The notes under the pieces were generated by a model, which searched no databases, had not been told where the DNA came from, and saw only the letters and a list, made by a program, of their open reading frames with translations. This document shows positions 4,012-37,007 of a stretch of 64,000 nt of DNA, piece by piece (position 1 is the first letter of the stretch; every line of letters begins with the position of its first letter). The stretch comes from a bacterium. Its GTDB lineage: Bacteria; Patescibacteriota; Saccharimonadia; Saccharimonadales; DATKHC01. The DNA lies in assembly GCA_021781215.1 (NCBI GenBank), contig JAJXXC010000004.1, positions 66,975 through 130,974 on the forward strand, written 5' to 3'. The translations under genes and the position numbers were made by a program.

Positions 4012-5432
4012 ATACTTCCCTCTAAGGCGTTGGCAAAATTAATTAGATCAGCATCGTGCTTTTGGTCAGCCATGATTTGAATACCAATCGGCAAACTATT
4101 GCCTACGTTAGCCGGAATACTGATTGCGGGAATCCCAACCAGACTGGCCCCAACAGTTAAAACATCGGTTAAGTACATCTTCATACTGTCATCAACGTTT
4201 TCACCGATTGCAAATGCAACATCGGGTGCCGTAGGTGTAATAATAAAATCACATTTTTTAAATGCCTGGTTATATTCTTCAATTAATTTAGTTCTTAGTT
4301 TTTGAGCTTGATTATAATATGCGTCATAATAGCCACTACTTAGCACATAGGTGCCAAGCATAATCCGACGTTTGGCTTCCCTTCCGAAACCCAAACTTCT
4401 GGTTTTATTATATGACTCTTCTAAAGTAGTAGCTTTGGAATCTGAAAAACCATACCTAGTTCCATCATACCTGCTAAGATTACTGCTAATCTCTGCTGGA
4501 GCAATAATATAGTAACAAGCCAGAGAATACTCAATTAACGGAAAAGAGACCTCAATAACGTTAGCACCAAGTGATTTTAGGGTTTCAATAGTTTGTCCAA
4601 ATTTTGTTTGAACAGGTTTAGATATATCCGAACCTTCAAATTCTTTAACCACACCAATGGTTTTACCCTTTAGACTATATTTATCTGGGATAAAGTCGTA
4701 AGAATCTAATTTAATAGTAGTGCTGTCTAGTGTATCTTGACCAGCAATTACTTCCATTACAATAGCGGTATCTCTAACATTTTTAGTTATCGGACCGATT
4801 ACGTCAGTACTGCTTGCCATAGCAATAACTCCGTTTCGTGAGACCAAACCATAGGTTGGTTTAAATCCAACCGCGCCGCAAAAAGATGCTGGCAAACGAA
4901 TCGAACCACCAGTATCGGTGCCAAGAGCAAACGGAGCCATATCCAAAATGACAGCGGCAGCTGAACCACCGCTACTTCCACCTGGTACTAATTTTTTGTT
5001 ATGTGGGTTTTTAGTAACCATAAAATCACTATTTTCAGTGCTAGATCCATGGGCAAATGCATCCAAGTTAGCCTTAGCTACACAAATAGCCCCCTCGGCT
5101 TCTAGTCTCTCGATAACTGTTGCCTGATACGGAGCTACAAAACCTTTTAATATATTACTAGCGGCTGTTGTGGCTGACCCAAATGTAAGCATATTATCCT
5201 TAGCAATAAATGGAACGCCTGCCAGTCTGCCAACTTTTTCACCCTTAACAATTCTTGCATCAATCGACTTAGCTCTTTCGATAGCCCTGTCTTTAATTAC
5301 CGAAATAATTGCATCATAGTCACTCTTGTCCTCAATCGTTGCTAAGGATTTCTCTACCAAAGATAGCGCAGTAGTTTTACCTGAGTTCACCTCATTAGCA
5401 ATAAGATCTATATCTTTCCATTGACTCATCAT
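4008..5432 (-). CDS. gatA: Glu-tRNA(Gln) amidotransferase subunit A
   Basis: 474 aa carrying the amidase signature GGSSGGSAAAV and GTDTGGSIRLPA. Confidence 0.95.
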   Translation of the reverse strand: MMSQWKDIDLIANEVNSGKTTALSLVEKSLATIEDKSDYDAIISVIKDRAIERAKSIDARIVKGEKVGRLAGVPFIAKDNMLTFGSATTAASNILKGFVAPYQATVIERLEAEGAICVAKANLDAFAHGSSTENSDFMVTKNPHNKKLVPGGSSGGSAAAVILDMAPFALGTDTGGSIRLPASFCGAVGFKPTYGLVSRNGVIAMASSTDVIGPITKNVRDTAIVMEVIAGQDTLDSTTIKLDSYDFIPDKYSLKGKTIGVVKEFEGSDISKPVQTKFGQTIETLKSLGANVIEVSFPLIEYSLACYYIIAPAEISSNLSRYDGTRYGFSDSKATTLEESYNKTRSLGFGREAKRRIMLGTYVLSSGYYDAYYNQAQKLRTKLIEEYNQAFKKCDFIITPTAPDVAFAIGENVDDSMKMYLTDVLTVGASLVGIPAISIPANVGNSLPIGIQIMADQKHDADLINFANALEGSI

Positions 5433-24275: not shown

Positions 24276-25394
24276 CTATTTAGGACTAGCTATTTTCTCC
24301 CACGGGAGTTGGCTTTTACCGAAATGACCATACGCTGAAGTATCCGAATATATCGGTTTTCTCAAATCCAATTGTTTAATTATTCCACTTACAGACGGAT
24401 CTATAAGATCATCAACAAATTTATATATCGACTCAAGTGATGTTAGCTCAGTTCCAAAAGTATCAATGTTTAACATTACAGGGCTCTTAGCACCTATATA
24501 GTAAGCAAGTCCTACTTCGACTTTTGACGCTAATTTTGAAGCAACTATATTTTTAGCAATATATCTAGCGGCATAAGCACCAGACCGATCAACTTTGCTA
24601 GGATCCTTACCACTAAAGGCACCACCTCCAACCCGAGCAAAGCCTCCATAACTATCAACTACAATCTTTCTACCAGTTAACCCACAATCAGAACTCGGGC
24701 CAGGAATATTCCAAATGCCAGTTCCATTTACAATCACCCGGTCTCTGTTAACGCTATAATTAAACTCAGCTAATATTGGGCTAATAATTTTGGTATATAC
24801 GTCCTCAAATATTTGTTCTGAAGTTACCTCTTCGCTATGAGGAACCGCAATAGTTACATGAGACACAAATTTCGGTTTATCGTCCTCGTAAGCAATGACT
24901 ACCTGAGCCTTACCATCAGGACGCAAGAATGACAACTCGCCAGACTCTCTTACTGAATCTATCTTTTTAGTTAATCTGTGTGCAATTGTTATTGGAGTTG
25001 GCATTAGTTCCTTAGTCTCATCACAAGCGAAGCCAAACATCATTCCCTGATCACCTGCTCCTTCAGCGTCAACTCCGACTGCAATTTCAGGAGACTGTTG
25101 ATGGATAAAATTATCGAGCTTTGATTCGTAGCTAAAACCCCAGTCATTATTTATATAACCGAGTTGTTTAATTTTATTTCTGGCAATTTCTTCAAAATTA
25201 ATTTTAGCAGTAGTGGTAACCTCACCCGCTAAAACAATGTGGTTGTCTGCAACCAGAGCCTCGACGGCAACTCTTCCGTTTGGATCTTCGGCTAGAACTG
25301 CATCAAGGATGGCATCGCTAATCCCATCACAAACCTTATCCGGATGACCGGCACAAACAGATTCACTGGCGAAATATGATATATTTTTTGACAT
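24276..25394 (-). CDS. metK: S-adenosylmethionine synthetase
   Basis: 372 aa with GHPDK, GAGDQGMMFG and GGGAFSGKDPSKVDRS motifs. Confidence 0.95.
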   Translation of the reverse strand: MSKNISYFASESVCAGHPDKVCDGISDAILDAVLAEDPNGRVAVEALVADNHIVLAGEVTTTAKINFEEIARNKIKQLGYINNDWGFSYESKLDNFIHQQSPEIAVGVDAEGAGDQGMMFGFACDETKELMPTPITIAHRLTKKIDSVRESGELSFLRPDGKAQVVIAYEDDKPKFVSHVTIAVPHSEEVTSEQIFEDVYTKIISPILAEFNYSVNRDRVIVNGTGIWNIPGPSSDCGLTGRKIVVDSYGGFARVGGGAFSGKDPSKVDRSGAYAARYIAKNIVASKLASKVEVGLAYYIGAKSPVMLNIDTFGTELTSLESIYKFVDDLIDPSVSGIIKQLDLRKPIYSDTSAYGHFGKSQLPWEKIASPK

Positions 25395-25395
25395 T

Positions 25396-25556
25396 AAAAA
25401 ATCCTTTCTATGATTAGTTTTTTAGCTAACTAACGAGAAAGGACTGCAATTCAATGCAAAATATCTTCCCCATTAGTTAGACTAATTGGGCTAGATTTAG
25501 CACCTTACACTAATTGCAGGTTGCTGGCGTGTCATCGAGCTAGGTCTCTATTCGCA
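25396..25556 (-). promoter_or_regulatory. SAM riboswitch (SAM-I clan, reduced P2) with a terminator/SD-sequestering hairpin, in the metK leader
   Basis: The minus strand reads GCGAAUAGAG..GAUGACACGCCAGCAACC..AAGGUGCUAAAUC..CCCAAUUAGUCUAACUAAUGGG..GAAGAUAUUUUGC. This contains the conserved GCAACC/GGUGCUAA core, a P4 hairpin, and P1 closure. It is followed by the stem UCCUUUCU(25443-25436)/AGAAAGGA(25409-25402), U6, then the metK ATG. Confidence 0.65.
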
Positions 25557-25695
25557 CTCTTTATATTTAAATTTTAAATTAAACGTACGTGTCATTAATT
25601 AGTGACAATACGGTTATTCTAGCATTAACATTTTAATAATTCCACTTTTTATATTTCTTAATAAAATATAACAAGATATAATCAGTAGTTACTGT

Positions 25696-25769
25696 TGGGA
25701 GTTGGCCAAGCGGTAAGGCACTGGGTTCTGGTCCCAGGATCGGGGGTTCGAATCCCTCACTCCCAGCCA
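25696..25769 (+). tRNA. tRNA-Gln (anticodon CUG), CCA encoded
   Basis: Manual cloverleaf: acceptor TGGGAGT/ACTCCCA (U1:A72), D arm GCCA-AGCGGTA-AGGC, anticodon arm CTGGG-TTCTGGT-CCCAG, T arm GGGGG-TTCGAAT-CCCTC, discriminator G plus CCA. Total 74 nt. Confidence 0.9.
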
Positions 25770-27334
25770 AGAGATAATTTTTCGTCTTTCAACAAGGTAT
25801 AGAATGGCTCTGCTAAGGAGTAATCAACTATTTTTATTCCATCAAAATGTAGGTTCAAAAACACATTGCGTATAATTATGTCTCGTTGAACCATTGTTCC
25901 ATTGTTGAACCTTTTAGCCATAGTTTGAACCAGTGTATTAAACTCTTCTGTCGTGAAAGCTTGTATTGACACTTTTTCTAGCTTTAGATTGTTATCTTCA
26001 ATCTTAGCTGTTTGGCTTGTTATTGTTCGCATATTTTCAGATATAGAGATCTGTATTTCTTCTTTCATTTTTGTATCTCTTATTACCAGTAATTGCTTAC
26101 CAAAATCTTTATTGTCGGTTCTCAACCTTGTTATATAGGCTTGCAAGCTTATATTCTCACCCCTAAGAGCTTGTTTGCGACTAGCTGATAACTCCTTATT
26201 TTCAGCCAAATATTTCTTATATACCTTTCCTGTGAGTTTAGACGAGACTTCTTTAAGAACTTTACTGGCTGCATCAGACACCACGATTGCCCTAACGTCT
26301 TTGGGCTTACGAGGGCAGTCAGTATTTTTGCATTTTGTATAAACATAATACTTGCCGCTTCTACTCTTAGAGCGATAGACAATCAGTGGCCGTTTATCGT
26401 GGCAAGTCTCACAAAACAAGATGTCTCTAAACGGCAAGAAATACTCTAACTTTTTGCCACTCCCACGTTTTCGCTTATAGTTTACCTCTTGAACTTTTGC
26501 ATAAGTAGCTTCATCAGTTAATGGCACAAAATCAGGTAGTAGTTCACGCAAATCTGCCGTACCGTCTGCCTGAACTGCTATGCCGTAATAAAAACTGCTA
26601 TGTTTGCCACTAAACATTCTAGTCAAGTCATTGGTTTTTATTATTCTAATCTTTCGTTCAGCTTTTATGATTTGAGAAAAGTTGTTTGTATTTAGATATT
26701 CAATAATTTCGTCGTGTTTAGCTCCTCTGGCTCTCATTTGCCATGCTTCTTGTATAAGCCCAAAGTTGTTGTTTTCTGTATCTGGTTTGTAGTAACCATT
26801 TTCTTGAATATATCCTAATCTTGGGTAACCTCCTAAACCGCCTTCTCCAAACTTTTTTCTTACCCCTCTTGTAGCTTTTTGCGATAATTCATCAGAATAA
26901 TGAGTTGCCAGCACAAACATTAAACCTAACATCATTCGGCCAGCAGGGTCATTCGAAAATGGCAATGAGAAAAATCTTAAGTCTTTCAACTGACCATTGT
27001 TTATCATATCTAAGATAATGCTGGCTTCAACCATATTACGAGCCAGTCGGTCAGGATGCCATGAAATAATTCCGTCAATCTCACCGCTTTTAACGCGTTT
27101 AATAAGATTTCTGAACTCTGGTCGTTTTTTGGCTATTTTTGCCGATTTACGTTCTTCGATTGGCTTACCGACTAACTTTAAGCAATCTCGCTTAACCAAT
27201 AACATACAGTCGTCTATTTGGTCGTTTATCGATCTGTATTGTCGCTCCAATCCTTCAGTACTCTTACGAGCGTATATAACGTATTTATAGGCTGTTTGGG
27301 GCTGACTTGTTGTGTTGTTAATGTCAGGGTTCAT
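25757..27334 (-). CDS. large serine recombinase (integrase)
   Basis: 525 aa with an N-terminal resolvase catalytic region (YARKSTEGLERQ), a recombinase domain, a Zn-ribbon (CETCHDK...CKNTDCP), and a C-terminal coiled coil. The last 4 codons and the TGA stop lie within the tRNA-Gln 3' end. Confidence 0.85.
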   Translation of the reverse strand: MNPDINNTTSQPQTAYKYVIYARKSTEGLERQYRSINDQIDDCMLLVKRDCLKLVGKPIEERKSAKIAKKRPEFRNLIKRVKSGEIDGIISWHPDRLARNMVEASIILDMINNGQLKDLRFFSLPFSNDPAGRMMLGLMFVLATHYSDELSQKATRGVRKKFGEGGLGGYPRLGYIQENGYYKPDTENNNFGLIQEAWQMRARGAKHDEIIEYLNTNNFSQIIKAERKIRIIKTNDLTRMFSGKHSSFYYGIAVQADGTADLRELLPDFVPLTDEATYAKVQEVNYKRKRGSGKKLEYFLPFRDILFCETCHDKRPLIVYRSKSRSGKYYVYTKCKNTDCPRKPKDVRAIVVSDAASKVLKEVSSKLTGKVYKKYLAENKELSASRKQALRGENISLQAYITRLRTDNKDFGKQLLVIRDTKMKEEIQISISENMRTITSQTAKIEDNNLKLEKVSIQAFTTEEFNTLVQTMAKRFNNGTMVQRDIIIRNVFLNLHFDGIKIVDYSLAEPFYTLLKDEKLSLGWE

Positions 27335-27494
27335 TTATTGCTACTAGTATTACTATACTGCTTTATTTTAGCAAATTTCTAAAGGTATACACATACTTTT
27401 GAACTCTTGCAATTGAACTACTTAGCTTACAAGTTTAGTTTGTCTAGCATTAGCAATACTCTATAAGGTAGATCAGGTGTAAAATTAAATACAT

Positions 27495-29738
27495 ATGAGC
27501 AATTTTAAGAAAAACTCTGATGAACCGATTGTCTCACTCAAAGAAGATAGATTTGGAAGAGAAAACTTTTCTCACACCCTAGCGGATGCGTTGATAAAAG
27601 TGCCAAATAATCAGTCCATGACGGTTGGCTTATATGGTACCTGGGGAAGCGGTAAAACATCAATAATCAACATTGCCAAAGAATATCTAAATAGTAAGTA
27701 CGAAAATGATGTAATTATTGTTGAGTTCAATCCCTGGATTTTCTCATCAGTAGAAAGTCTGCATATGGCTTTTTTTAATTCATTAGCTGTAAAACTTCAC
27801 AAAAAATTAAAAACAAGGGGTCAAGAAGTAGGTGAAGCTATACAAAAATATGGTCAACTTACAGACCCTATTGGTAGTGCAGTAGGAATGTTACAGCCAC
27901 AAGTAAAATCTTTAGCAAAAATAATCGGTCAGGTCATTAGCGTATTTGGCTCTGCCTTAAATAAAACGGAAGATATTAACGCTATCAGAGTTAAGGTCAA
28001 TACAATTCTGGCTTCGTCTGGCAAAAGAGTTGTCGTAGTAATAGATGATATAGATAGGCTAGACAAAGATGAAGTGCATCAGGTGTTTAAGCTAGTCAAA
28101 AACGTAGCCCACTTCAAAAACGTTTCTTATTTACTATCATTTGACCGTGTTGTGGTAGCCGAAGCCTTATCAGAAAGGTATCCAAATAGTCCAAGTTTTG
28201 GCGGTAGCTTTATCGATAAAATAGTCCAGCTACCTCTTTTCGTGCCTAGCGTTGACCAGTTATTACTAAATAGATTTCTTACAGACGACCTTGATAGAAT
28301 CATCTCACAAAACAAACTAGATATAACAGAGAAAGATATGTCTCGCTTCCAGTCTGTTTTCTTCGCTCGAGATGCAGACAAGTTATTTGATACTCCCAGA
28401 AAGGTGGTACGTTATCTAAACACTGTTGACTTCTCTACAGAAAGTCTAGGTATTGAAACTTGCTTTACTGATACTGCCTTAATTGATTTAATTCGTAACT
28501 TCTACCCTGACCTTTATGAAAGTATTGCTTCCAATAAACTATTACTTTTGAATGGGATGCATGGCGATAGAGAAATCGAGAACGAGAAAGCTGCAGCCAG
28601 AAAGGCTGTATTTGGAACTGACAAGCCGTTTGCTATGGAAGCCATGCTTATTCGTGAATTATTCCCTAGTTTTGAATGGGCTTTAGGTGGGTCATCATAT
28701 TCTGGTGATTTTCTAAAAATCTGGGAAGACGAAAAAAGAGTTTGCTCAGAGAAATACTTTAATCGCTTTTTTGCTTATGACATACCAGTAGGTGATGTGG
28801 CAGACGCTAAAATAGATAGCTTCTTATTAACTCTTAGCTCACCAAAAACAACTATACCTATAGCCGAAAAAGCTTTTAAGGATATGAGTAAAAATAGCGA
28901 TCAGGCGTTATTGCTGTCTAAACTAAGAAGAAAAGAAGACGATCTCACTGAGACTGTCAGTAAAAAGCTTTCTCAGGTTATGGTTAATGTTGGCTTTAGC
29001 TTATCGAGACAAAGACAGGCTTTGGTGGGTGATATGTATTCACCATATGTACAATCGGCTATTCTAGCGATAAGACTAACTCGCAACATACAAAATCCAT
29101 ATAAGACACTAGAAAAGTACATAAAAAGCAGCCCAATTGATTATGCTGCTCAACTTTTTAATTGGATTAGAGTAAACACCGAGAAAGACAAAACTACTCA
29201 AGAAGACTTTGAGCCGTTAATTACACTTGATGAACTCGACAATTTAGGCAAGCTGATTGCTAATAGAATTAAGACTTATACCAATACGAAATATATCCAA
29301 ACTGACTTAACGCAAGATGTACCTTTCTTGATGTGGATTTGGCAAAAGTGGGGTAATAAGTCCGACATAAACAACTATTTTGCTAAAAGCTTTAAGAACA
29401 ATCCTGAAAGAGCTGTAGACTTTTTGATGACTTATGTAGGTGATGCTTGGGAGATAGGTACAGGCATAAAAACTCGATCTGAGTTCAGGAGAGAAGCCTA
29501 TGATCAAGTAGCCAAAGTTGTTGACCCTGAAGTTTTTATTAAACCGTTAATGACGCTATACGGTAAGGAAGTAAACGAGGGTGGGTTCAGCGATAGTCGG
29601 TTTGATAAAACTAAAGATTACAAGTTTCAGGTAGCTCAACAGTTCCTGTACATTAACCGTAATAAAGATAAAGTGGATAGTAATAAAGCAGCAGGAACTG
29701 AAGCTATCGAAGGTGAGGTCGTAGATACCGCAATATAA
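27495..29738 (+). CDS. KAP-family P-loop NTPase
   Basis: 747 aa with Walker A GLYGTWGSGKTS, Walker B/KAP motif VVVVIDDIDRLDKDE, and a long helical C-terminal half. Confidence 0.8.
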   Translation: MSNFKKNSDEPIVSLKEDRFGRENFSHTLADALIKVPNNQSMTVGLYGTWGSGKTSIINIAKEYLNSKYENDVIIVEFNPWIFSSVESLHMAFFNSLAVKLHKKLKTRGQEVGEAIQKYGQLTDPIGSAVGMLQPQVKSLAKIIGQVISVFGSALNKTEDINAIRVKVNTILASSGKRVVVVIDDIDRLDKDEVHQVFKLVKNVAHFKNVSYLLSFDRVVVAEALSERYPNSPSFGGSFIDKIVQLPLFVPSVDQLLLNRFLTDDLDRIISQNKLDITEKDMSRFQSVFFARDADKLFDTPRKVVRYLNTVDFSTESLGIETCFTDTALIDLIRNFYPDLYESIASNKLLLLNGMHGDREIENEKAAARKAVFGTDKPFAMEAMLIRELFPSFEWALGGSSYSGDFLKIWEDEKRVCSEKYFNRFFAYDIPVGDVADAKIDSFLLTLSSPKTTIPIAEKAFKDMSKNSDQALLLSKLRRKEDDLTETVSKKLSQVMVNVGFSLSRQRQALVGDMYSPYVQSAILAIRLTRNIQNPYKTLEKYIKSSPIDYAAQLFNWIRVNTEKDKTTQEDFEPLITLDELDNLGKLIANRIKTYTNTKYIQTDLTQDVPFLMWIWQKWGNKSDINNYFAKSFKNNPERAVDFLMTYVGDAWEIGTGIKTRSEFRREAYDQVAKVVDPEVFIKPLMTLYGKEVNEGGFSDSRFDKTKDYKFQVAQQFLYINRNKDKVDSNKAAGTEAIEGEVVDTAI

Positions 29739-29743
29739 GATAT

Positions 29744-30195
29744 TTAATCTGTCGAGGTATCAATCTCAAGCTCAATAGCTTCTGTTTCTTGATAGGTTTT
29801 TGCTTTAGTAACTATTAGCTTCTTAACAAACCTAAACTCTTTAGCTCTCTGTGCGTTACGCTTTTGTCTATCTTGACGGTCTTGCCACCACATGGCTACA
29901 TTTATATCTCCCCAATGTAGTGCTCAATTATGCTCGTAGCTCGGTTTGTAATTGTGTCTTGAGTGGCGGTTGTTTTGTCTCGAAACTCCACATTTTTTCA
30001 TCTCAGTATAAAAGACCGAGCGAGGCACACCAGACTTCACGCAACCCAATGATACGCCGACAGTACATCTACTTCATCACGACTTATCTTTGAGAGCTTG
30101 TCAGTAATGTGCATGCCTTGCAACACCTGAGCCTGTGGGTTGAACTTCTAAACTAGCTCGGCTGTCTTCTCCTCGTAATACTTGCCTTTCTTCAT
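29744..30195 (-). pseudogene. decayed paralog of the HTH gene at 31219..31653
   Basis: Manual translation gives fragments in three frames, interrupted by in-frame stops. MKKGKYYEEKTAELV* is followed by ..KISRDEVDVLSAYHWVA*, then GVPRSVFYTEMKK.., then ..MWWQDRQDRQKRNAQRAKEFRFVKKLIVTKAKTYQETEAIELE. These are colinear with GVSTSTYYKELAS...SRWWIDRQDKLERSAQRAKEYRLIKRLIITKTYQETQSVKLE. DNA similarity is visible between 29770-29890 and 31225-31345. Confidence 0.6.
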
Positions 30196-30282
30196 ATATA
30201 CATTTTACCCCACGTTGAGGTGTAAGATAGGCAGTTAGTATAGTCACGTTATGGACTAGGCTAGGCAACCTTGGATTATATA

Positions 30283-30879
30283 TCAGGGAACTAGCCACTC
30301 GCCAGTGCTTTGCAACAAACCACTTTGGGTTTGGAATTGTATCTTAGCGGCCTTGACGGCATCAGGAACTTGAAATACTACACATCCAGTAGTGCTTTCG
30401 CCGGGAGCTAATGTGTACTGTCCACTATTGAAATTAGTACATTCAGACACACTACTAAAGTCAGCTGTATAACTTTGGTTGTCTGTTCCTATTAGGGTGA
30501 CGTCACTGTTAGCGTCATCATTAAACGCAGCTGTGCCATTATTAACAATTTTTACATCTACTGCGACAAACCTTTTCCCAGCATCAGCAGTAGTATACTG
30601 GTCAACTCCGCTTGCAGGGTCAATCACCTGATTTAGCGTTACTGCTAAGCCTTTGCTTCCACCGACATCTACCGTTGAGCCAACGTGAGCCGTTGAATTT
30701 AATGGACTAGAACTAGGTTTATTGCTACTTGAACTCGTACCAGCCTTGCTTGCAGTTGTAGTTACGGTGGTTTTGTTACCACCAGCAGAAATTGAACCAA
30801 TAATTATTAAGGCCACTATCACACCAATTATACTCGACACTTTATGACGTCTAAAAAAACTTTTTTCCTTACTGCTCAT
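30283..30879 (-). CDS. DUF4352-like secreted/membrane-anchored Ig-fold protein
   Basis: 198 aa with an N-terminal TM helix, an S/T-rich linker, and a C-terminal domain (KRFVAVDVKIVNNG...TLAPGESTTGCVVFQVP) resembling DUF4352. GC content is visibly higher than in the neighbours. Confidence 0.65.
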   Translation of the reverse strand: MSSKEKSFFRRHKVSSIIGVIVALIIIGSISAGGNKTTVTTTASKAGTSSSSNKPSSSPLNSTAHVGSTVDVGGSKGLAVTLNQVIDPASGVDQYTTADAGKRFVAVDVKIVNNGTAAFNDDANSDVTLIGTDNQSYTADFSSVSECTNFNSGQYTLAPGESTTGCVVFQVPDAVKAAKIQFQTQSGLLQSTGEWLVP

Positions 30880-30985
30880 TTGTAAACTCCTAGCTTAACT
30901 TATATCTGTAAAGATAGCACATTAAATAACAAAAATAAACAACTAGTTTATGTAACTATCTGTTTATAATTCTTACCCTAAGTGT

Positions 30986-31213
30986 ATGAGCAATGCACAA
31001 GAACAAAAGTTGATGAAAGCCTTTGGTAAACGAATTTCTGAGGTTCGTAAAAGTCGTGGTGTTACACAACAACAGCTAGCTGAACATATAAATATGAGTG
31101 TTGTTGCTATCGCCTATATTGAAACTGGCAAGCGTTGGGCACGACTTGGAACGTTGAATAAGATAGCCAAAAGCCTGAAAGTAACTGTAGCTAACTTATT
31201 TGAAGGAATATAA
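30986..31213 (+). CDS. XRE-family helix-turn-helix regulator
   Basis: 75 aa with a typical Cro/CI HTH (RGVTQQQLAEHINMSVVAIAYIETGKR). Confidence 0.8.
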   Translation: MSNAQEQKLMKAFGKRISEVRKSRGVTQQQLAEHINMSVVAIAYIETGKRWARLGTLNKIAKSLKVTVANLFEGI

Positions 31214-31218
31214 ATTCC

Positions 31219-31653
31219 CTATTTTGTAAACATGTCTGTTTCAAGCTTAACGCTTTGTGTTTCTTGATAAGTTTTAGTGATGATAAGCCGTTTGATGAGC
31301 CGATATTCTTTGGCTCTCTGTGCACTTCTTTCAAGTTTGTCTTGACGATCAATCCACCAACGAGATGTTTGAACATCGTGTTGCTTTTCAATAGCATCCT
31401 TAACAACTAAGTTGGCAAAGATTGTGGTTTCATTCTGGGCAATAGTCATTTTGTCCGAAAATCTTTTATTACTAGCAAGTTCCTTGTAGTAAGTTGAAGT
31501 ACTGACACCAGATAGGACACAGGCACCACTAACGTTCATACCTTTCCTAAAACAATCAACTAGTTCTCGGACAACCACTGGCGTTATTGCTTTGGGTCGT
31601 CCAACGCTTTTACTAGGATTGTTTATCGCGAGTTGTTGTGACTGATTTATCAT
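31219..31653 (-). CDS. HTH protein resembling a phage terminase small subunit or excisionase-type DNA-binding protein
   Basis: 144 aa with an N-terminal GRPKAITP..HTH (GACVLSGVSTSTYYK) and a C-terminal SRWWIDRQ motif, as in small-terminase-like HTH proteins. Function is not proven. Confidence 0.5.
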   Translation of the reverse strand: MINQSQQLAINNPSKSVGRPKAITPVVVRELVDCFRKGMNVSGACVLSGVSTSTYYKELASNKRFSDKMTIAQNETTIFANLVVKDAIEKQHDVQTSRWWIDRQDKLERSAQRAKEYRLIKRLIITKTYQETQSVKLETDMFTK

Positions 31654-31706
31654 AGTCTTATTGTAACAAGATTCGCTGGTATGATGTAGTATTGGCTAAA
31701 GCTATA

Positions 31707-33290
31707 CTACCTAGCAGGCTGATCATTGACTTCTTTTTCAATGATCAGCATCTTGTTAAAGCTTCTCTCGACACTCTCAATAAATGTGTCTATTACTATG
31801 GGGAAGTCATCTTGTTTAACTACAGCACCGTCGTATATTTGTTCCATTATTATAGTTCTATTTTGGTTAGGAAAAGATATTTTTGTATATTCAATTTTTT
31901 TCTTGCGTGAAGCAGTATAATATGGTTTATTTGCCATCGCCACTCCAAAGCCAAAGTCCATTATTATCTTTGCCATCTTGACACTGTGTATCCTGAGAGT
32001 TCTATCATCGGGCTTATCCAAAGCCATAACCTCTACCTTTATAGCCTCAAGCTTTGATTTGTATTCTCTATTCAGAAGCAAGGTAAGTAGAGTGCCGGGT
32101 TTTGGGAACTCTTTTTCATCAAAGCTAATGTCTTTTCCATAAAGTAAAACCCCGTCCGACCAAATAATAAACCGGTCTTTTTTATAAATTTCTGAGAACA
32201 GATCAGCCTCATTAATAAAGGTTGCATCTACCGGGTATTCTCCAAAAGTTTTTGAATAGCCATTAGTAATTATATAAAAGTTTATATCTGATATATGAGC
32301 CTTAAACTCATTTCTAGCAGCACTTCCCACTAGATAGATCGATACCACAATATTGCCTAGTTCTTTTTCTGCAAACTCAACCATTGGATAGACCATAAGG
32401 TCAAGGGGCGACTTAATTTTGTCCTTACTCGCCTTATTCTCAATGTTCATAGAACCCAAAAACTCAGTATACTTAACCATAATTTTGGCTAACTCAATTG
32501 GATTAGTTTCAATTTTGAAATGCTTAATCAGTGCATCGGCCATCCTTTCGACGGTATATTCAATTTCAGTTATAGTTTTTTGCTGTTTTTTAACTAACTC
32601 TGATCTCAATTTATCATAGGCATCCTTACCTAGCTTCTCCATTCTAGTCTTACCATCCTCTGTTAGTTGCTGAGTAGGTGTTGGTTGAAGCATAATTTTA
32701 GACATTCTTATCTTTTGATAATCACTATTGAGAGCTAGTCTACTTGCAAAGTGATGATGCTGTGTTCTTCTTTTTAGTACAACACCTATTGGGTTATCAG
32801 ATTGTTCCAGCTTCTTTAGCAGTTCGTATACACCTATTTCCCCTAACTTGTCTTTATTCTTTTTGAGAAAACTAGCAAGCCTCATATTTTCTGGTTCAGA
32901 ATAAGCTTTCGGGAAAGGAGGCTCGGCAAACATAAGGTCTAGTAGTCTTAATAATTTGTCTTTGAACTGATGAACGAGATCAAGGAATATGCCATTGTAG
33001 TAGTTAATTAAGTCTTCTGGTTCATGAGTCTTGTGTTTAGTAGTAAGTTTTTCGTTGACGTTTGCAATTAGTTCGGATGTTAGTTTAAGTTCATTCAAAA
33101 CCCTTTCAATTTCACCAGCATATATATACCGATTCTCAAAGACCTTACGCTCAAAGGTTATTCTTTCAATAGCAGCATAGCCCGGTTCATCCATCTCTTT
33201 CTGAAGGTTGAGCATAAGTAAGCTCTGCCTTAACTTGGAGAACTCAGTATCTGGTACTCTTCTACTATTGACTGATACTTCTTCACCCAT
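31707..33290 (-). CDS. nucleotidyltransferase-fold protein with a long helical N-terminal region (possible HEPN-NTase-HEPN architecture)
   Basis: 527 aa with a minimal-NTase signature at aa 319-340, YLVGSAARNEFKAHISDINFYI (GS-x11-D-I-N). Rx4H motifs occur at aa 174-180 (RRTQHHH) and aa 430-435 (RTLRIH). Domain calls rest on motifs only. Confidence 0.55.
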   Translation of the reverse strand: MGEEVSVNSRRVPDTEFSKLRQSLLMLNLQKEMDEPGYAAIERITFERKVFENRYIYAGEIERVLNELKLTSELIANVNEKLTTKHKTHEPEDLINYYNGIFLDLVHQFKDKLLRLLDLMFAEPPFPKAYSEPENMRLASFLKKNKDKLGEIGVYELLKKLEQSDNPIGVVLKRRTQHHHFASRLALNSDYQKIRMSKIMLQPTPTQQLTEDGKTRMEKLGKDAYDKLRSELVKKQQKTITEIEYTVERMADALIKHFKIETNPIELAKIMVKYTEFLGSMNIENKASKDKIKSPLDLMVYPMVEFAEKELGNIVVSIYLVGSAARNEFKAHISDINFYIITNGYSKTFGEYPVDATFINEADLFSEIYKKDRFIIWSDGVLLYGKDISFDEKEFPKPGTLLTLLLNREYKSKLEAIKVEVMALDKPDDRTLRIHSVKMAKIIMDFGFGVAMANKPYYTASRKKKIEYTKISFPNQNRTIIMEQIYDGAVVKQDDFPIVIDTFIESVERSFNKMLIIEKEVNDQPAR

Positions 33291-33305
33291 AAACTTAGCT
33301 CTTTA

Positions 33306-33647
33306 TTATTTCTGTTTCTTTAACACAAGCCTTATTTTGTTTGGCTTTTTCTTCACTAGCCTGATAATGGCTTTATCTTGACTAAAGACGTTTTGCATTG
33401 CCCTGCTTATTACCACATCTAGGTTCAATCTTGCATTGGTTACTGATATTCTTTCAATATATAGGTTGTTACGCCCTTTGTCTGTGGCTAAACTTAGTGT
33501 CATTACTGAGCCATCATCTAATACAATCTCACCATTGTTACCGCTAGCGTCACCAATTTCAATCTCACTTAAGACAGATAATAAATCAGTGATACTCTTT
33601 AGCATTGTTTTTTGTTTACTGGACACTAATGTTTTGTTATAACTCAT
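33306..33647 (-). CDS. hypothetical 113-aa protein, first gene of the NTase operon
   Basis: ORF lies 15 nt upstream of the 527-aa gene on the same strand and has a lysine-rich C-terminus. No recognisable motif. Confidence 0.45.
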   Translation of the reverse strand: MSYNKTLVSSKQKTMLKSITDLLSVLSEIEIGDASGNNGEIVLDDGSVMTLSLATDKGRNNLYIERISVTNARLNLDVVISRAMQNVFSQDKAIIRLVKKKPNKIRLVLKKQK

Positions 33648-33805
33648 AGATTACCCCTCGTTGATACCTATATTTTATAATACTTGCGTTATTGCCGCTA
33701 ATTAAGTCATTTAGCATTTGCCCAAACTTATGCAAGCCAGCCATAACATCAGCACATGTGATATGCTCGGCATTACTAGGTACTGGTTCAAATTGAGTTT
33801 CATTT

Positions 33806-33822
33806 TCCCAGCCACAAGAGAT
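33806..33822 (+). repeat. att-like copy of the tRNA-Gln 3' terminus (candidate attR)
   Basis: TCCCAGCCAcaAGAGAT compared with TCCCAGCCAAGAGAT at 25761-25775. Confidence 0.45.
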
Positions 33823-34045
33823 TCGATCTTAAGCCAAATATCTAGTCACGACATCGTAAAACGTCCTCGACCGTCACCCACAGCAATCATGGATTCGAAC
33901 GTAAGTCAAACATGTAGTATGGTAAATGTATTTTTAGATCTAGTTACTCCGCAGAAATTTTACTTGTTAAAAATTATACGGAAGTTCAATTCCCTAGACT
34001 CCAAAATTTAATATCTATACTATTGGAGTAAACTAGGAGAATAAT

Positions 34046-34756
34046 ATGAGTCACGAGGCAAAAATTCACGAAGCACAGACAAAAATTTTACGAGAACTTT
34101 TATTCTTACCCAAAGCAAATTTCGCATTACTCCAAAAGGCCACAGGTCTAGAGGGTGACCATGCCAAATTCCATATTAAGCGATTAGTTGAGCTTGAATA
34201 TCTTAGCAAATCAAATGGCACCTATTCGCTCAGTATACGTGGTAAGGAATATGCAAATAAGCTTGATACTGACGTCAACACTATAGAACGCCAACCAAAA
34301 AGTACTACAATTTTGATAATTTGTCGTACGAAAAATGGCAAAAAAGAATACATCGCCCAAGAACGTCTAAAAAATCCATACTTTGGTTTTTGGGGTTTCC
34401 CAAGCGGTAAGATTCGCTGGGGTGAATCAATTTACGAAACTGCTGAACGTGAAATGACTGAAGAAACTGGATTATCTGGTGGTAAATGGGAGCATCGCGG
34501 AATTTATCACGAGAGAGTTCGTCACACAAACACAAAAGAAATTATAGAAGATAAGATTTTTCACATTATGTACACCGAGCACATATCAGGTGAATTAATT
34601 GAAAAATTTGAGGGTGGTAGAAATAAATGGATGGAACTAGAAGATATAAAGAAAAATCCTAAACATTACAAAAGCTTTGATATCGAAGCAGAGTTCGCTA
34701 TGCACCCTATCCCATTCATCGAAGCTCTTGACGAATACGACGACGGACAATTTTAA
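34046..34756 (+). CDS. NUDIX hydrolase with an N-terminal winged-helix domain
   Basis: 236 aa with a Nudix box GKIRWGESIYETAEREMTEETGL (GX5EX7REUXEEXGU) and an N-terminal wHTH-like region. Confidence 0.85.
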   Translation: MSHEAKIHEAQTKILRELLFLPKANFALLQKATGLEGDHAKFHIKRLVELEYLSKSNGTYSLSIRGKEYANKLDTDVNTIERQPKSTTILIICRTKNGKKEYIAQERLKNPYFGFWGFPSGKIRWGESIYETAEREMTEETGLSGGKWEHRGIYHERVRHTNTKEIIEDKIFHIMYTEHISGELIEKFEGGRNKWMELEDIKKNPKHYKSFDIEAEFAMHPIPFIEALDEYDDGQF

Positions 34757-34771
34757 TAACACTGTTGGAAT

Positions 34772-34878
34772 CTTATGCTATGCAAAAAAATCTAGACCGA
34801 CATACTCAGCCAATTTGGTAATATATAATCGCAATAACTTCTTAGTCTGAGCGGAAAACTACACCCAAGAGCCTTAGT
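34772..34878 (+). repeat. intergenic mosaic repeat, copy C (3' part of the unit plus the restart AGAGCCTTAGT)
   Basis: CTTATGCTA..AAATCTAGACCGACATACTCAGCCAATTTGGTAATATATAATCGCAATAACTTCTTAG aligns to copy A. AGAGCCTTAGT at 34868-34878 matches 37819-37829. Confidence 0.7.
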
Positions 34879-34892
34879 GTTACAATTTATAT

Positions 34893-35231
34893 ATGGCAAC
34901 GAATAAAACAAAAACATGGAAACCGACAGCAGCAGGAATTATGAGCCTAATAGTCGGCACTTTTACTGTTTACTATCACACGTTTGGCACTTTTACCAAT
35001 CACTGGCACATCCTTAATCTGATCATTCCCGACATCATAGGTCTTATTGCGTTAGTCGGTGGATTTTATGCTATTAAGCGGCACAGATGGGTAGTGGCAG
35101 TAGCCGGTGCAGTTTGTACTATGTATCCACCCCATCCATGGGGCAGTTTAGTATGGACTCCTGTTCTAGGCGTTATTGGTATCGTTCTTCTGATGCAATC
35201 TAAAAAAGAGTTTTCTGATGAAGAACAATAA
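34893..35231 (+). CDS. hypothetical small membrane protein (3 predicted TM helices)
   Basis: 112 aa with hydrophobic segments; no recognisable motif. Confidence 0.5.
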   Translation: MATNKTKTWKPTAAGIMSLIVGTFTVYYHTFGTFTNHWHILNLIIPDIIGLIALVGGFYAIKRHRWVVAVAGAVCTMYPPHPWGSLVWTPVLGVIGIVLLMQSKKEFSDEEQ

Positions 35232-35433
35232 ATTACTCGGTATCCCGACAGTTATATGGCTCCTTCAGCTGTTATATGTTGCTTTAGCACTTGGGTTATT
35301 TGCAATCCTATCACTCAAGCTACATAAGCAGGTACATCAACTGGCGTTTCAGCTTGAGTATGTCTTCATTATGGTCGTTATCAACATTGCTTGGCGTGTG
35401 ATTATCAAAATGAAAAATCCGGATTGGTTTTAA
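35218..35433 (+). CDS. hypothetical small membrane protein
   Basis: 71 aa with two hydrophobic segments; overlaps the upstream ORF by 14 nt. Confidence 0.4.
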   Translation: MKNNKLLGIPTVIWLLQLLYVALALGLFAILSLKLHKQVHQLAFQLEYVFIMVVINIAWRVIIKMKNPDWF

Positions 35434-35436
35434 ACA

Positions 35437-35565
35437 CTTATGCTAACAGAGCTTTCACACTCGCCATCGACACAGGGTCTACAATAAGAGTCAAAGTTCT
35501 GAAATCCGACCATGGTCCCAACCAATTTGGTAATATACAACCACGGTAACTTCTTAGCCCCAAGC
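35437..35565 (+). repeat. intergenic mosaic repeat, copy A (most complete unit)
   Basis: The 5' and middle parts (AGAGCTTTCACACTCGCCATCGA..GTCAAAGTTCTGAAATCCGACCATGGTCCCAACCA) share sequence with copy B. The flank and 3' part (CTTATGCTA, ..CCAATTTGGTAATATACAACCACGGTAACTTCTTAG) share sequence with copy C. Confidence 0.7.
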
Positions 35566-35635
35566 TGTCTTTTGTCTCATACTAATATGGTTTCCCATAT
35601 TTGATAAAACTTGTATTATTAGCAAAGAGAAATAC

Positions 35636-35992
35636 ATGGCAGACATCACAATTGAAAATGACGAATTGATTTTGAAGCTTTCAGCAGTAGAAAAAGCTGA
35701 AGCAGTACACGGCGACCTTCGTGTCCCACTTTCGGAGGTTCAAAAAGTCGAAGTAATAGATGATGCTCTAGAGATGACTCGCATCAAAACAGGATTCAAG
35801 GTCGGAATGAGGGCGCCTGGTTATGCAAGCGTAGCCGTTATCCGTCGTCCAAGATATAAAGCCTTTGTTGCAGTACACCATGATACACCTAAAGCAATTC
35901 GTGTTACCTTAGCAAGTGATTCATATAACGAATGGGTAGTAGGTGTTGCTAACCCAGAGTCAGTACTAGCCAGCCTAAATCTAAAAAAGTAA
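35636..35992 (+). CDS. hypothetical 118-aa soluble protein
   Basis: Clean ORF with locally higher GC and no firm motif. Confidence 0.5.
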   Translation: MADITIENDELILKLSAVEKAEAVHGDLRVPLSEVQKVEVIDDALEMTRIKTGFKVGMRAPGYASVAVIRRPRYKAFVAVHHDTPKAIRVTLASDSYNEWVVGVANPESVLASLNLKK

Positions 35993-36008
35993 CTAATAGT
36001 TAAGATTA

Positions 36009-36094
36009 GGCCAGAAGAGCCTTCACTCTCACCATTGATTCTGAGTCAATAGTAAGGGTCAAAGTTCGAAAATCCGACCTTGGTCTCAGCCAAG
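36009..36094 (+). repeat. intergenic mosaic repeat, copy B; tRNA-Gln-like relic
   Basis: Contains a 5-bp stem with a 7-nt loop, ATTGA-TTCTGAG-TCAAT (36034-36050), with CTG at the anticodon position. Downstream come GTTCGAAAATCC (T-loop-like) and TCTCAGCCAAG (36084-36094), compared with the tRNA TCCCAGCCAAG. The 5' edge GGCCAGA is nearly complementary to the 3' edge TCTCAGCC. Confidence 0.6.
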
Positions 36095-36281
36095 CATAAA
36101 CATTTAGAACACGCTAATGGCATTTAAGCGTTCACGGAACAAAGCATATGTAATGATAACAAAACCTCTACCTTTAAATAGGACAGCAGTCTTCCTTTAA
36201 CTTATATGCACCCCTATTACATCGGCTCAAATATATAACTTTTTACCACGTACACAAGTTTTTTTGGTATGATTTAGCTAA

Positions 36282-37007
36282 ATGACATCGGCAGTAAAAA
36301 TAAATAATCTATCTGTGGTTCTAGGGGGTCAAGTTAATGCCCTAAAGCATATCAACCTAGAAGTCCCCGAAGGTAAGATTACTGGTTTTATCGGACCATC
36401 GGGAGCGGGCAAGACTACTTTAATAAGATGTATAGTCGGCAGACTAGCAATACCCAAGGGATCAGTAGAGGTTTTTGGGTTGACGTCCGGTTCACCGAAA
36501 CTTCGTAGTAGGGTTTCGTATATGACCCAGGAATTATCGGTATATACGGACTTGACTGTAATTGAAAATCTTACATATTTTTCTAGAATGATTGGTCAAT
36601 CTAGGCGTGAAACAATCGACACCGTGAAAGATATTCTACAAACTATTAATATGTCTGATAAGGCGACTACATTGGTCGGTTGCTTATCTGGAGGACAAAA
36701 GCAAAGAGTGTCTTTAGCGATAGCTCTTATCGGTAAGCCAAAGTTAATGGTATTGGACGAGCCTACAATTGGTCTCGATCCGGCTCTTAGAGAAAATCTA
36801 TGGCAGCTTTTTTACAAAATTGCTGCAAGTGGTACGACACTCATAATCTCGAGTCACTCCATGGACGAAGCTAGAAGATGCGACGAATTGGTTTTGCTCC
36901 GTGAAGGAAAAGTAATCGCTTACGATTCCCCAAAAGAGCTACTTCACAAGACAGAAACTAAATCCGTAGAAGAGGCATTTTTAAAGCTAGTAAGTGAGAA
37001 ATCATGA
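36282..37007 (+). CDS. ABC transporter ATP-binding protein (ABC-2/DrrA-like)
   Basis: 241 aa with Walker A GPSGAGKTT, signature LSGGQKQR, and Walker B MVLDEP. Confidence 0.9.
   Translation: MTSAVKINNLSVVLGGQVNALKHINLEVPEGKITGFIGPSGAGKTTLIRCIVGRLAIPKGSVEVFGLTSGSPKLRSRVSYMTQELSVYTDLTVIENLTYFSRMIGQSRRETIDTVKDILQTINMSDKATTLVGCLSGGQKQRVSLAIALIGKPKLMVLDEPTIGLDPALRENLWQLFYKIAASGTTLIISSHSMDEARRCDELVLLREGKVIAYDSPKELLHKTETKSVEEAFLKLVSEKS

Follow-up and report, generated by a model that had tools for sequence, protein, structure and literature searches.

An intergenic repeat downstream of tRNA-Gln in a Saccharibacteria-like genome as a probable attR-type junction of a tandem cassette array

We analyzed a 64,000-nt stretch of bacterial contig JAJXXC010000004.1 (hereafter the window) and, within it, copy B of an intergenic repeat (36006-36092) that a sequence-only reading had described as a relic of a tRNA-Gln gene. 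The results indicate that copy B is an integration scar and not a decayed tRNA gene. It is probably an attR-type junction, the outermost one in a tandem array of integrated DNA pieces that lies downstream of tRNA-Gln(CTG) in a Saccharibacteria-like genome, and presumably also the oldest. Recombination occurs at an 8-nt core, CCCAGCCA, corresponding to the last 8 nt of the tRNA, and Patescibacterial elements encoding a large serine recombinase (LSR) sit at such cores.

Junctions at the 3' end of tRNA-Gln

The sequence quoted for the feature (36009-36094) was recovered as an exact match, and its proposed membership of a repeat family was confirmed both in the window and in metagenomic relatives. 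The segment 36006-36093 aligns without gaps over 88 nt with copy A (35438-35525; 76% identity, E = 1e-13), and a shorter repeat piece joins 34807-34845 to 35519-35557 (39 nt, 85% identity). We designate as X the 88-nt module, as Y a 33-nt motif to the right of the core, as W a diverged X-like arm and as B' a recurrent right arm opening with AGCATAAGC. In these terms the window contains three chained sites, W-core-Y (~34785-34845), X-core-Y (35438-35557) and X-core-Z (36006-36135), and the cores of all three fit the pattern C(C/T)CA(G/A)CCA, as do the final 8 nt of tRNA-Gln. Scanning metagenomes for a 20-base pattern taken from X, GTCAAAGTTCNNAAATCCGACC, returned 13 loci, each with an X module of ~88 nt between flanks that are unrelated on either side, and in these loci the conservation of X stops precisely at ...CCCAGCCA, the tRNA-Gln 3' end. 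Identity to the family consensus is 85% for both copy A and copy B, and an alignment of 19 distinct X copies (A2) was assembled. The core is mutated in both copies (CCCAACCA in A, CTCAGCCA in B), suggesting that the small cassettes they close may no longer recombine and are now fixed. A REP/MITE-type repeat would be expected in many copies scattered through a genome, with terminal inverted repeats and target duplications. Within the 64 kb, a window and not a whole genome, X copies occur only in a cluster, and in the longer metagenomic loci all copies lie in same-strand arrays.

A tRNA-Gln gene lies upstream of X, on the same strand, in the window and at five independent loci (L089/L093, L090, L097, L098 and L105). 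Cores resembling the tRNA 3' end are enriched ~9-fold in X loci (59 vs 6.7 in shuffled sequences) and form same-strand arrays, with four in 1.5 kb of L092 and five in L096. Two spacing classes can be distinguished by the distance from TTCGAA to CCA, which is 23 nt in the tRNA type and 28 nt in the X type. Left arms (tRNA, plain tRNA 3' relic, X and others) and right arms (Y, B', LSR gene ends and others) occur in many combinations, and the switch between partners always falls at the core. We identified tRNA-core-Y in L089; X-core-Y in window copy A, L091 and L092; X-core-B' in window copy B, L094 and L105; X-core-LSR in L100, L101 and L110; and tRNA-core-LSR in the window, L112 and L113. The Y motif thus follows a genuine tRNA-Gln in L089, and it follows X cores in L090, L091, L092, L100 and L105. 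Two pairs of nearly identical contigs part ways at this point. Up to the core, L091 and L100 share 99.8% identity over 4344 nt; directly after it their similarity drops to random level, and L100 runs into an LSR gene. Two contigs from one metagenome (L092 and L099) likewise diverge exactly after the core. These pairs therefore show the core to be a live breakpoint, polymorphic in natural populations.

The cargo beside X is varied, including APH, amidohydrolase, PIN, Fic, ABC ATPase and Vgb lyase genes, and the genes upstream of X lie on either strand depending on the locus. Cassettes at tRNA-Gln with antibiotic-modifying or efflux genes were observed in L008 (5971-6396 and 6632-7831), L088 (7999-8901) and L091 (1946-3340), encoding Arr rifampin ADP-ribosyltransferase, MFS, APH and Vgb lyase proteins. 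Searches of INPHARED and PLSDB with blastn yielded no match, and no viral contig matched the X pattern. An "empty" unit in L092 (1318-1407) consists of X-core-Y followed by a bare 28-nt X tail and core, with neither cargo nor hairpin, and these 28 nt may be the minimal functional arm. In L094 (1205-1251), X is truncated to its 3' 47 nt, with an IS110-family transposase gene (1595-2599) directly upstream. IS110/IS1111 elements target hairpin-type sites, and the arrangement suggests that this copy was truncated by insertion into the X hairpin.

Taken from left to right, the window appears to hold tRNA-Gln, an LSR element, a NUDIX cassette, the o112/o71 cassette, the o118 cassette and a B'-like flank (Table 1), an order that we read from the arms and cores in the sequence. 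In the window, X begins 5-14 nt past the stop codon of the upstream open reading frame (ORF). Neither of the two small cassettes contains a recombinase gene, and they are either decayed elements or pieces mobilized in trans. The W arm closing the NUDIX cassette encodes WLSMSV* on the minus strand (asterisks denote stop codons), in frame with Y; within it, 34795-34811 (-) forms a terminator-like hairpin with a T-run that would end a minus-strand gene crossing that core. Copy C of the repeat (34785-34812) had been a candidate for the right boundary of the LSR element until the P arm was found at 33730-33814.

Table 1. Features of the tRNA-Gln locus in the 64,000-nt window.
Feature	Position	Strand	Description
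Intact tRNA-Gln(CTG)	25696-25769	+	ARAGORN; Rfam tRNA 61.1 bits; custom model 105 bits; 3' end CCCAGCCA (25762-25769) is the recombination core and B arm of attL
LSR gene, integrated truncated form	25757-27334	-	525 aa; Pfam Resolvase 1.1e-22; overlaps tRNA 3' end
Integrated ~8-kb LSR element	25770-33814		LSR, KAP NTPase, DUF4352, HTH, o144, 527-aa nucleotidyltransferase-like protein, o113, P arm; Pfam
P arm of LSR element (attR)	33637-33814	-	Orphaned codons for last ~58 LSR residues; ends at core CCCAGCCA (33807-33814)
NUDIX cassette	33815-34812		Pfam NUDIX; starts, right of the core at 33814, with CAAGAGATTCG; ends in diverged X-like arm W (~34785-34804) and core CTCAGCCA (34805-34812)
Cassette 1 (o112/o71)	34813-35524		Y, ORFs 34893-35231 and 35218-35433 (small membrane-like proteins), X copy A
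Y arm, first copy	34813-34845	+	ATTTGGTAATATATAATCGCAATAACTTCTTAG; 85% identical to 35525-35557
X copy A	35438-35524	+	Core CCCAACCA at 35517-35524; nhmmer 86 bits; alignment A2
Cassette 2 (o118)	35525-36092		Y, ORF 35636-35992 (118 aa, unknown function), X copy B
Y arm, second copy	35525-35557	+	X-core-Y junction arranged attP-like
X copy B (feature in question)	36006-36092	+	Hairpin 36015-36069; tRNA-like tail TTCGAAAATCCGACCTTGGTCTCAGCCA at 36065-36092; core CTCAGCCA at 36085-36092
B'-like right arm	36093-36135	+	AGCATAAAC...; opening AGCATAAGC also closes arrays at six other loci

The tRNA-Gln(CTG) gene is the sole tRNA of the window according to both ARAGORN and Rfam. Lowering the ARAGORN thresholds to 95% and 90% revealed tRNA-Pro-like structures at 859-930 (-) and 4887-4982 (-), which neither the default run nor Rfam reported and which may be false positives or degenerate tRNAs. 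Divergent from tRNA-Gln lies metK (24276-25394), preceded by a SAM-I riboswitch (25458-25569, -; 56.4 bits). The source corresponds to a Saccharibacteria-like MAG (GCA_027356125.1), and the organism also occurs in samples ERZ27236853, SRR5080639 and SRR17201898. The nearest MetK among GTDB representatives is 66% identical, so that the source species is absent from that set; it belongs to an uncultured Ca. Saccharibacteria (L008) that keeps the metK/tRNA-Gln synteny and has two clear relics of the tRNA 3' end just downstream of the tRNA gene. Accessory genes at tRNA-Gln in relatives encode Arr and MFS proteins in L008 and AbiGi in L009. A search for a compositional island across 20-42 kb of the window found flat GC content (0.34-0.41).

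A recombinase gene crossing its attachment site

The LSR gene of the window overlaps the tRNA, and its final four codons (LGWE*) are the antisense of the tRNA 3' end. When the two ends of the element were joined in silico (27334 to 25770, then 33814 to 33637), the gene continued as an uninterrupted ORF of 580 aa. Over its entire length this ORF is 81% identical to the 580-aa recombinase P0009 of an un-integrated relative (contig L115), a protein with the tail ENVTQFEP... In L115 the recombinase is followed by homologs of the window ORFs o113 and o144, the far-end genes of the 8-kb element. The match between the rejoined ORF and P0009 implies that integration truncates the recombinase from 580 to 525 aa, a loss of 55 residues. 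In this LSR lineage the gene spans attP, and its tail-coding segment is left behind at the far junction. Up to the core, the P-type arm at that junction (33730-33814) shares ~88% identity with L110, from which it diverges beyond that point. Three states of the lineage can be recognized: integrated in the window, in the attP form in L115 and fused to X in L110. The X-core-LSR arrangement had been considered as the attP form by default and was rejected, because in L110 it lies inside an array.

Homologs 70-85% identical to the window protein share a common ...SLGW and then acquire tails that vary with the sequence across the core: G* or E* where they read the tRNA antisense, GGGIRTPE... where they read through the tRNA, GYGRIFEL... 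where they read into X, and ENVTQFEP... Pfam detects only the Resolvase domain in the window LSR, which is homologous to proteins with PF07508 and PF13408, and the LSR of L089 presents the Resolvase, Recombinase and zinc-ribbon domains in full. LSR genes end at cores in L089 (against a plain relic), in L100, L101 and L110 (against X) and in L112 and L113 (against the tRNA), and four divergent LSR genes each end at a core. Among more distant LSR homologs (P0017-P0044), we observed C-termini that are antisense to tRNAs (…EIRTPAPG…, …ETRTRDL…). This suggests that, across Patescibacteria, members of the LSR family occupy the 3' ends of various tRNA genes and that their ORFs extend over the junction. 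The cargo of the window LSR element (27495-33290) looks defense-like, comprising a 747-aa KAP-family P-loop NTPase, a 527-aa protein with a weak nucleotidyltransferase match, HTH regulators and a DUF4352 protein.

Coding signature, hairpin and tRNA-like tail of the repeat

Read on its minus strand, X comprises 28 codons, WLGLWSDFRTLTLTIDPASMARVKALLA*, and the stop codon (TAA or TGA) falls exactly at the 5' edge of conservation. X copies vary with a period of 3. Codon differences from the consensus in the minus frame comprise 103 synonymous vs 54 non-synonymous changes, compared with 7-29 vs 121-137 in four other frames and 78 vs 70 in the plus frame that shares its wobble positions. The swaps include Arg CGA/AGA and Leu TTR/CTR, and among 63 unique variants none creates a stop codon, while wobble positions account for 30 (p = 0.013). 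Y carries on the minus frame of X (…LRSYRGCILPN, continued by WLG…), and a 41-aa ORF of the window, 35438-35563 (-), corresponds to this X+Y reading. Because most genomic X copies have no start codon upstream, they are orphans. By analogy with the window LSR, X is most plausibly a stranded 3' coding end, read on the minus strand, from a gene that extended across attP in a different lineage of elements. In copy B, it is the ~60 nt ahead of the tRNA-like tail that show this behavior.

We rejected the idea that X supplies the C-terminal tail of the window LSR, since the reading frame is wrong, and the X-encoded tail matches no Pfam family. In L100 and L101, the stop codon of the LSR gene is overlapped by small ATG-initiated ORFs that extend into X. 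At 9990-10020 of L101, the LSR stop (AAA TAA C) shares bases with the start codon ATG of a 59-aa ORF, which encodes a Q/N-rich linker followed by the X tail; this arrangement is seen in four independent samples (L101-L104), and a +1 shift at the stop would fuse recombinase, linker and tail. A protein named "HicB" (P0002) was considered as a carrier of the X tail and discarded as a spurious ORF across a terminator.

Among the alternatives, it could be argued that X is a structured non-coding element acting in place, such as a terminator or stabilizer hairpin or a small RNA. X forms a 23-bp imperfect hairpin that is 85% paired in the 19 copies, vs 27-40% when the partners are slid; its minus strand in copy B folds with z = -2.9; and its start just past the upstream stop codon in the window would suit a terminator or stabilizer. 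Against this, covariation in the hairpin is not above that of shuffled alignments, and the mismatches fall at wobble positions, at every third base, without compensation. Consensus searches called neither a promoter in Y nor a terminator in X, there is no U-tract at X and no Rfam family matches it, while upstream genes lie on either strand across loci. A structural role would also leave unexplained both the exact end of X at the tRNA core and the breakpoint polymorphisms, and we consider it unlikely.

The proposal of a decayed whole tRNA-Gln gene, keeping an anticodon arm, a T arm and an acceptor end in order, fares worse. The motifs on which it was built are all present in copy B: GGCCAGA at 36009-36015, ATTGA/TTCTGAG/TCAAT at 36034-36050 with CTG at 36041-36043, so that CTG lies in a 7-nt loop closed by a 5-bp stem, GTTCGAAAATCC at 36064-36075 and TCTCAGCCAAG at 36084-36094, the latter agreeing at 10 of 11 nt with TCCCAGCCAAG of the resident tRNA (25761-25771). 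The supposed anticodon arm, however, is the tip of the 23-bp hairpin, whose loop is GCAGG in the family, TTCTGAG being private to copy B. The acceptor-like closure is also particular to this copy, with 37% of cells paired across the family, equal to shuffles. A custom covariance model built from three Saccharibacteria tRNA-Gln genes aligned 36006-36092 over its full length as the second-best match in the window, but at 9.8 bits (E ~ 2.3), a background score beside chance matches of 9.1, 8.1 and 7.5 bits, and on this measure the whole-tRNA reading essentially fails. At E <= 10 the same model left all other X copies undetected, whereas it recovered plain relics of tRNA 3' ends from these loci with scores of 13-15 bits. 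An Rfam search of 35900-36300 returned no match even at E <= 10, and ARAGORN reported a "tRNA-???" at the feature solely at 80% thresholds, at which the window yields 27 "tRNAs". Smith-Waterman alignment of copy B with the resident tRNA scored 11 (p ~ 0.055 vs shuffles), a score equaled by 93 of 6373 other window segments, and across comparisons the similarity of copy B to this tRNA has p ~ 0.06-0.23. The period-3 variation, moreover, points to coding and not tRNA ancestry. A decayed tRNA gene is very improbable.

Part of that proposal stands. The last ~28 nt of X resemble the T-loop-to-CCA end of tRNA-Gln: over the 3' 24 nt only, the family consensus matches tRNA-Gln of L097 at 23 of 24 positions with two gaps (p = 0.0017), the alignment reading GTTCG--AATCCtACCA---TCCCAGCCA. 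This segment may be either related to the corresponding part of tRNA-Gln or a mimic of it. The suggestion that copy B was left by an old integration at tRNA-Gln is likewise supported.

Proposed mechanism and comparison with known systems

These observations are probably best accommodated by a model in which X would be the counterpart, in another lineage, of the orphaned tail-coding end of the window LSR, Y would be the in-frame stretch beyond the core, and X-core-Y would constitute an attP-like site. Recombination of a circular Y-cargo-X molecule with tRNA-core-B' would then yield tRNA-core-Y and X-core-B', and the junctions found in L089 (tRNA-core-Y) and in copy B, L094 and L105 (X-core-B') are the products expected of this reaction, as the X-core-Y of copy A within its array is the remnant expected from repeated insertion. 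Successive events would stack cassettes with the oldest outermost, and the tRNA-like tail of X would provide a recombinase half-site beside the crossover. It is conceivable, but in our view doubtful, that this Patescibacterial LSR family uses the tRNA-Gln 3' end as a gene-capture platform, in which the attP-spanning gene, by swapping or losing its C-terminal tail, acts as an integration-state sensor that could set directionality or stability, and miniature Y-cargo-X units keep both half-sites and are mobilized in trans.

Several points weigh against the model of stacked att junctions. Canonical LSRs recombine only attP with attB, so tandem stacking at an attL-type site is unexpected, and the use of X, a P-type arm, as the target arm in L110 fits this rule poorly. 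For the window's own species we found no excision product, circle or empty site, all eight of the eight contigs with o118 and all contigs with the same MetK being arranged alike. The coding signal is moderate: with each variant counted once it is weakened, though not abolished (28 synonymous vs 35 non-synonymous changes; expected synonymous fraction 0.27), and the plus frame with shared wobble positions is also elevated. Among 5.8 billion protein clusters, the X-encoded tail occurs on no large protein and on two small ORFs only, one of them the spurious ORF across a terminator. Finally, the conserved pairing of the hairpin would be compatible with a function exerted through DNA or RNA.

The arrays resemble those of integrons in their short cassettes with unrelated cargo, often of resistance type (APH, Vgb lyase, Arr, MFS), each ending in a conserved imperfect palindrome beside the crossover, and X might accordingly be taken for an attC-type folded site of a tyrosine recombinase, with the tRNA end as attI. 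Within the window and L088-L100, however, no IntI-type or Phage_integrase gene adjoins either the tRNA or an array, and the recombinases that abut cores are LSRs. Alignment A2 contains no R''/L''/L'/R' boxes and no GTTRRRY motif, the breakpoint follows CCCAGCCA, ~16 nt 3' of the hairpin foot and not inside the hairpin, and cargo genes occur in both orientations. An integron-like system, with its attI and Pc, is thus highly improbable here, where the site is tied to a tRNA 3' end. Local duplication by unequal crossing-over, involving neither site-specific recombination nor the tRNA, would account for two full copies and one partial copy lying near each other on the same strand, but it is hardly credible given the unrelated ORFs between copies, the presence of the module at at least 13 other loci with different neighbors and junction partners that switch exactly at the 8-nt core.

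Accretion of elements at an attachment site has parallels elsewhere. At the attachment sites of streptococcal integrative and conjugative elements, accretion generates cis-mobilizable elements, recombinase-less units bounded by att sites that lie in tandem with a recombinase-bearing element and are potentially mobilizable in trans. The stacking of recombinase-less, att-bounded units with a recombinase-bearing element at one site is shared with the present locus, which differs in recombinase class, host and target and has no conjugation genes.

The closest known pattern is that of the tycheposons of Prochlorococcus, tRNA-linked islands built by successive integrations (bioRxiv 10.1101/2020.12.28.424599). 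As here, they integrate at tRNAs and are flanked by partial tRNA copies, newcomers push older elements outward, degenerate remnants and extra partial tRNAs persist within the island, LSRs are found in a minority of elements and the host genome is streamlined. The present system is distinguished by a Saccharibacteria-like host of the candidate phyla radiation (CPR), by a repeat that is an 88-nt arm with a tRNA-like tail 5 nt longer and a coding-like body, by a recombinase gene that spans attP and by many tiny units (0.57-1 kb) without a recombinase.

With characterized large serine integrases (A118/LI, phiC31, Bxb1; PMC3783163), the present recombinases share the Resolvase/Recombinase/zinc-ribbon domains, and their sites share a short core between otherwise unrelated arms. 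The distance from TTCRAA to the core end is 28 nt in P-type arms (X and the arm ending at 33814) vs 23 nt in the tRNA, a 5-bp offset that recalls the shift of the zinc-ribbon motif between attP and attB but is only suggestive. Unlike the sites of those integrases, the present ones have weak dyad symmetry and include a P-type arm, X, that is also used as a target (L110). Mycobacteriophage BPs and its relatives have integration-dependent immunity; in BPs, attP lies inside the repressor gene and the integrated form of the protein is shortened from 136 to 103 aa (PMC4557955). The C-terminal shortening on integration is common to both systems; in BPs the split gene encodes a repressor alongside a tyrosine integrase, whereas here the serine recombinase itself is split. 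In the literature searched, we found no description of an attP-spanning gene truncated on integration for a serine recombinase in CPR bacteria, nor of this tRNA-Gln/LSR/cassette system in Saccharibacteria.

For annotation, the locus suggests that "tRNA-like" intergenic repeats beside tRNA genes should be read as att arms and that conserved "non-coding" arms can be orphaned gene ends. The truncation of a recombinase gene by its own integration offers a hypothesis for how directionality or turnover of a serine integrase might be controlled without a separate factor. CPR bacteria, including Saccharibacteria, have tiny genomes and acquire genes by routes that are little understood, and this locus presents a concrete one: a tRNA-Gln hotspot that gathers both recombinase-bearing elements and very small recombinase-less cassettes, with cargo comprising NUDIX, membrane proteins, KAP NTPase and nucleotidyltransferase in the window and APH, Arr, Vgb lyase, MFS, PIN and Fic in relatives. 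Resistance-type cargo is of particular note in epibionts of antibiotic-producing Actinobacteria. If the gene-capture model is true, a serine recombinase and the end of a tRNA gene would together form an integron-like cassette system that stocks Saccharibacteria with resistance and defense genes.

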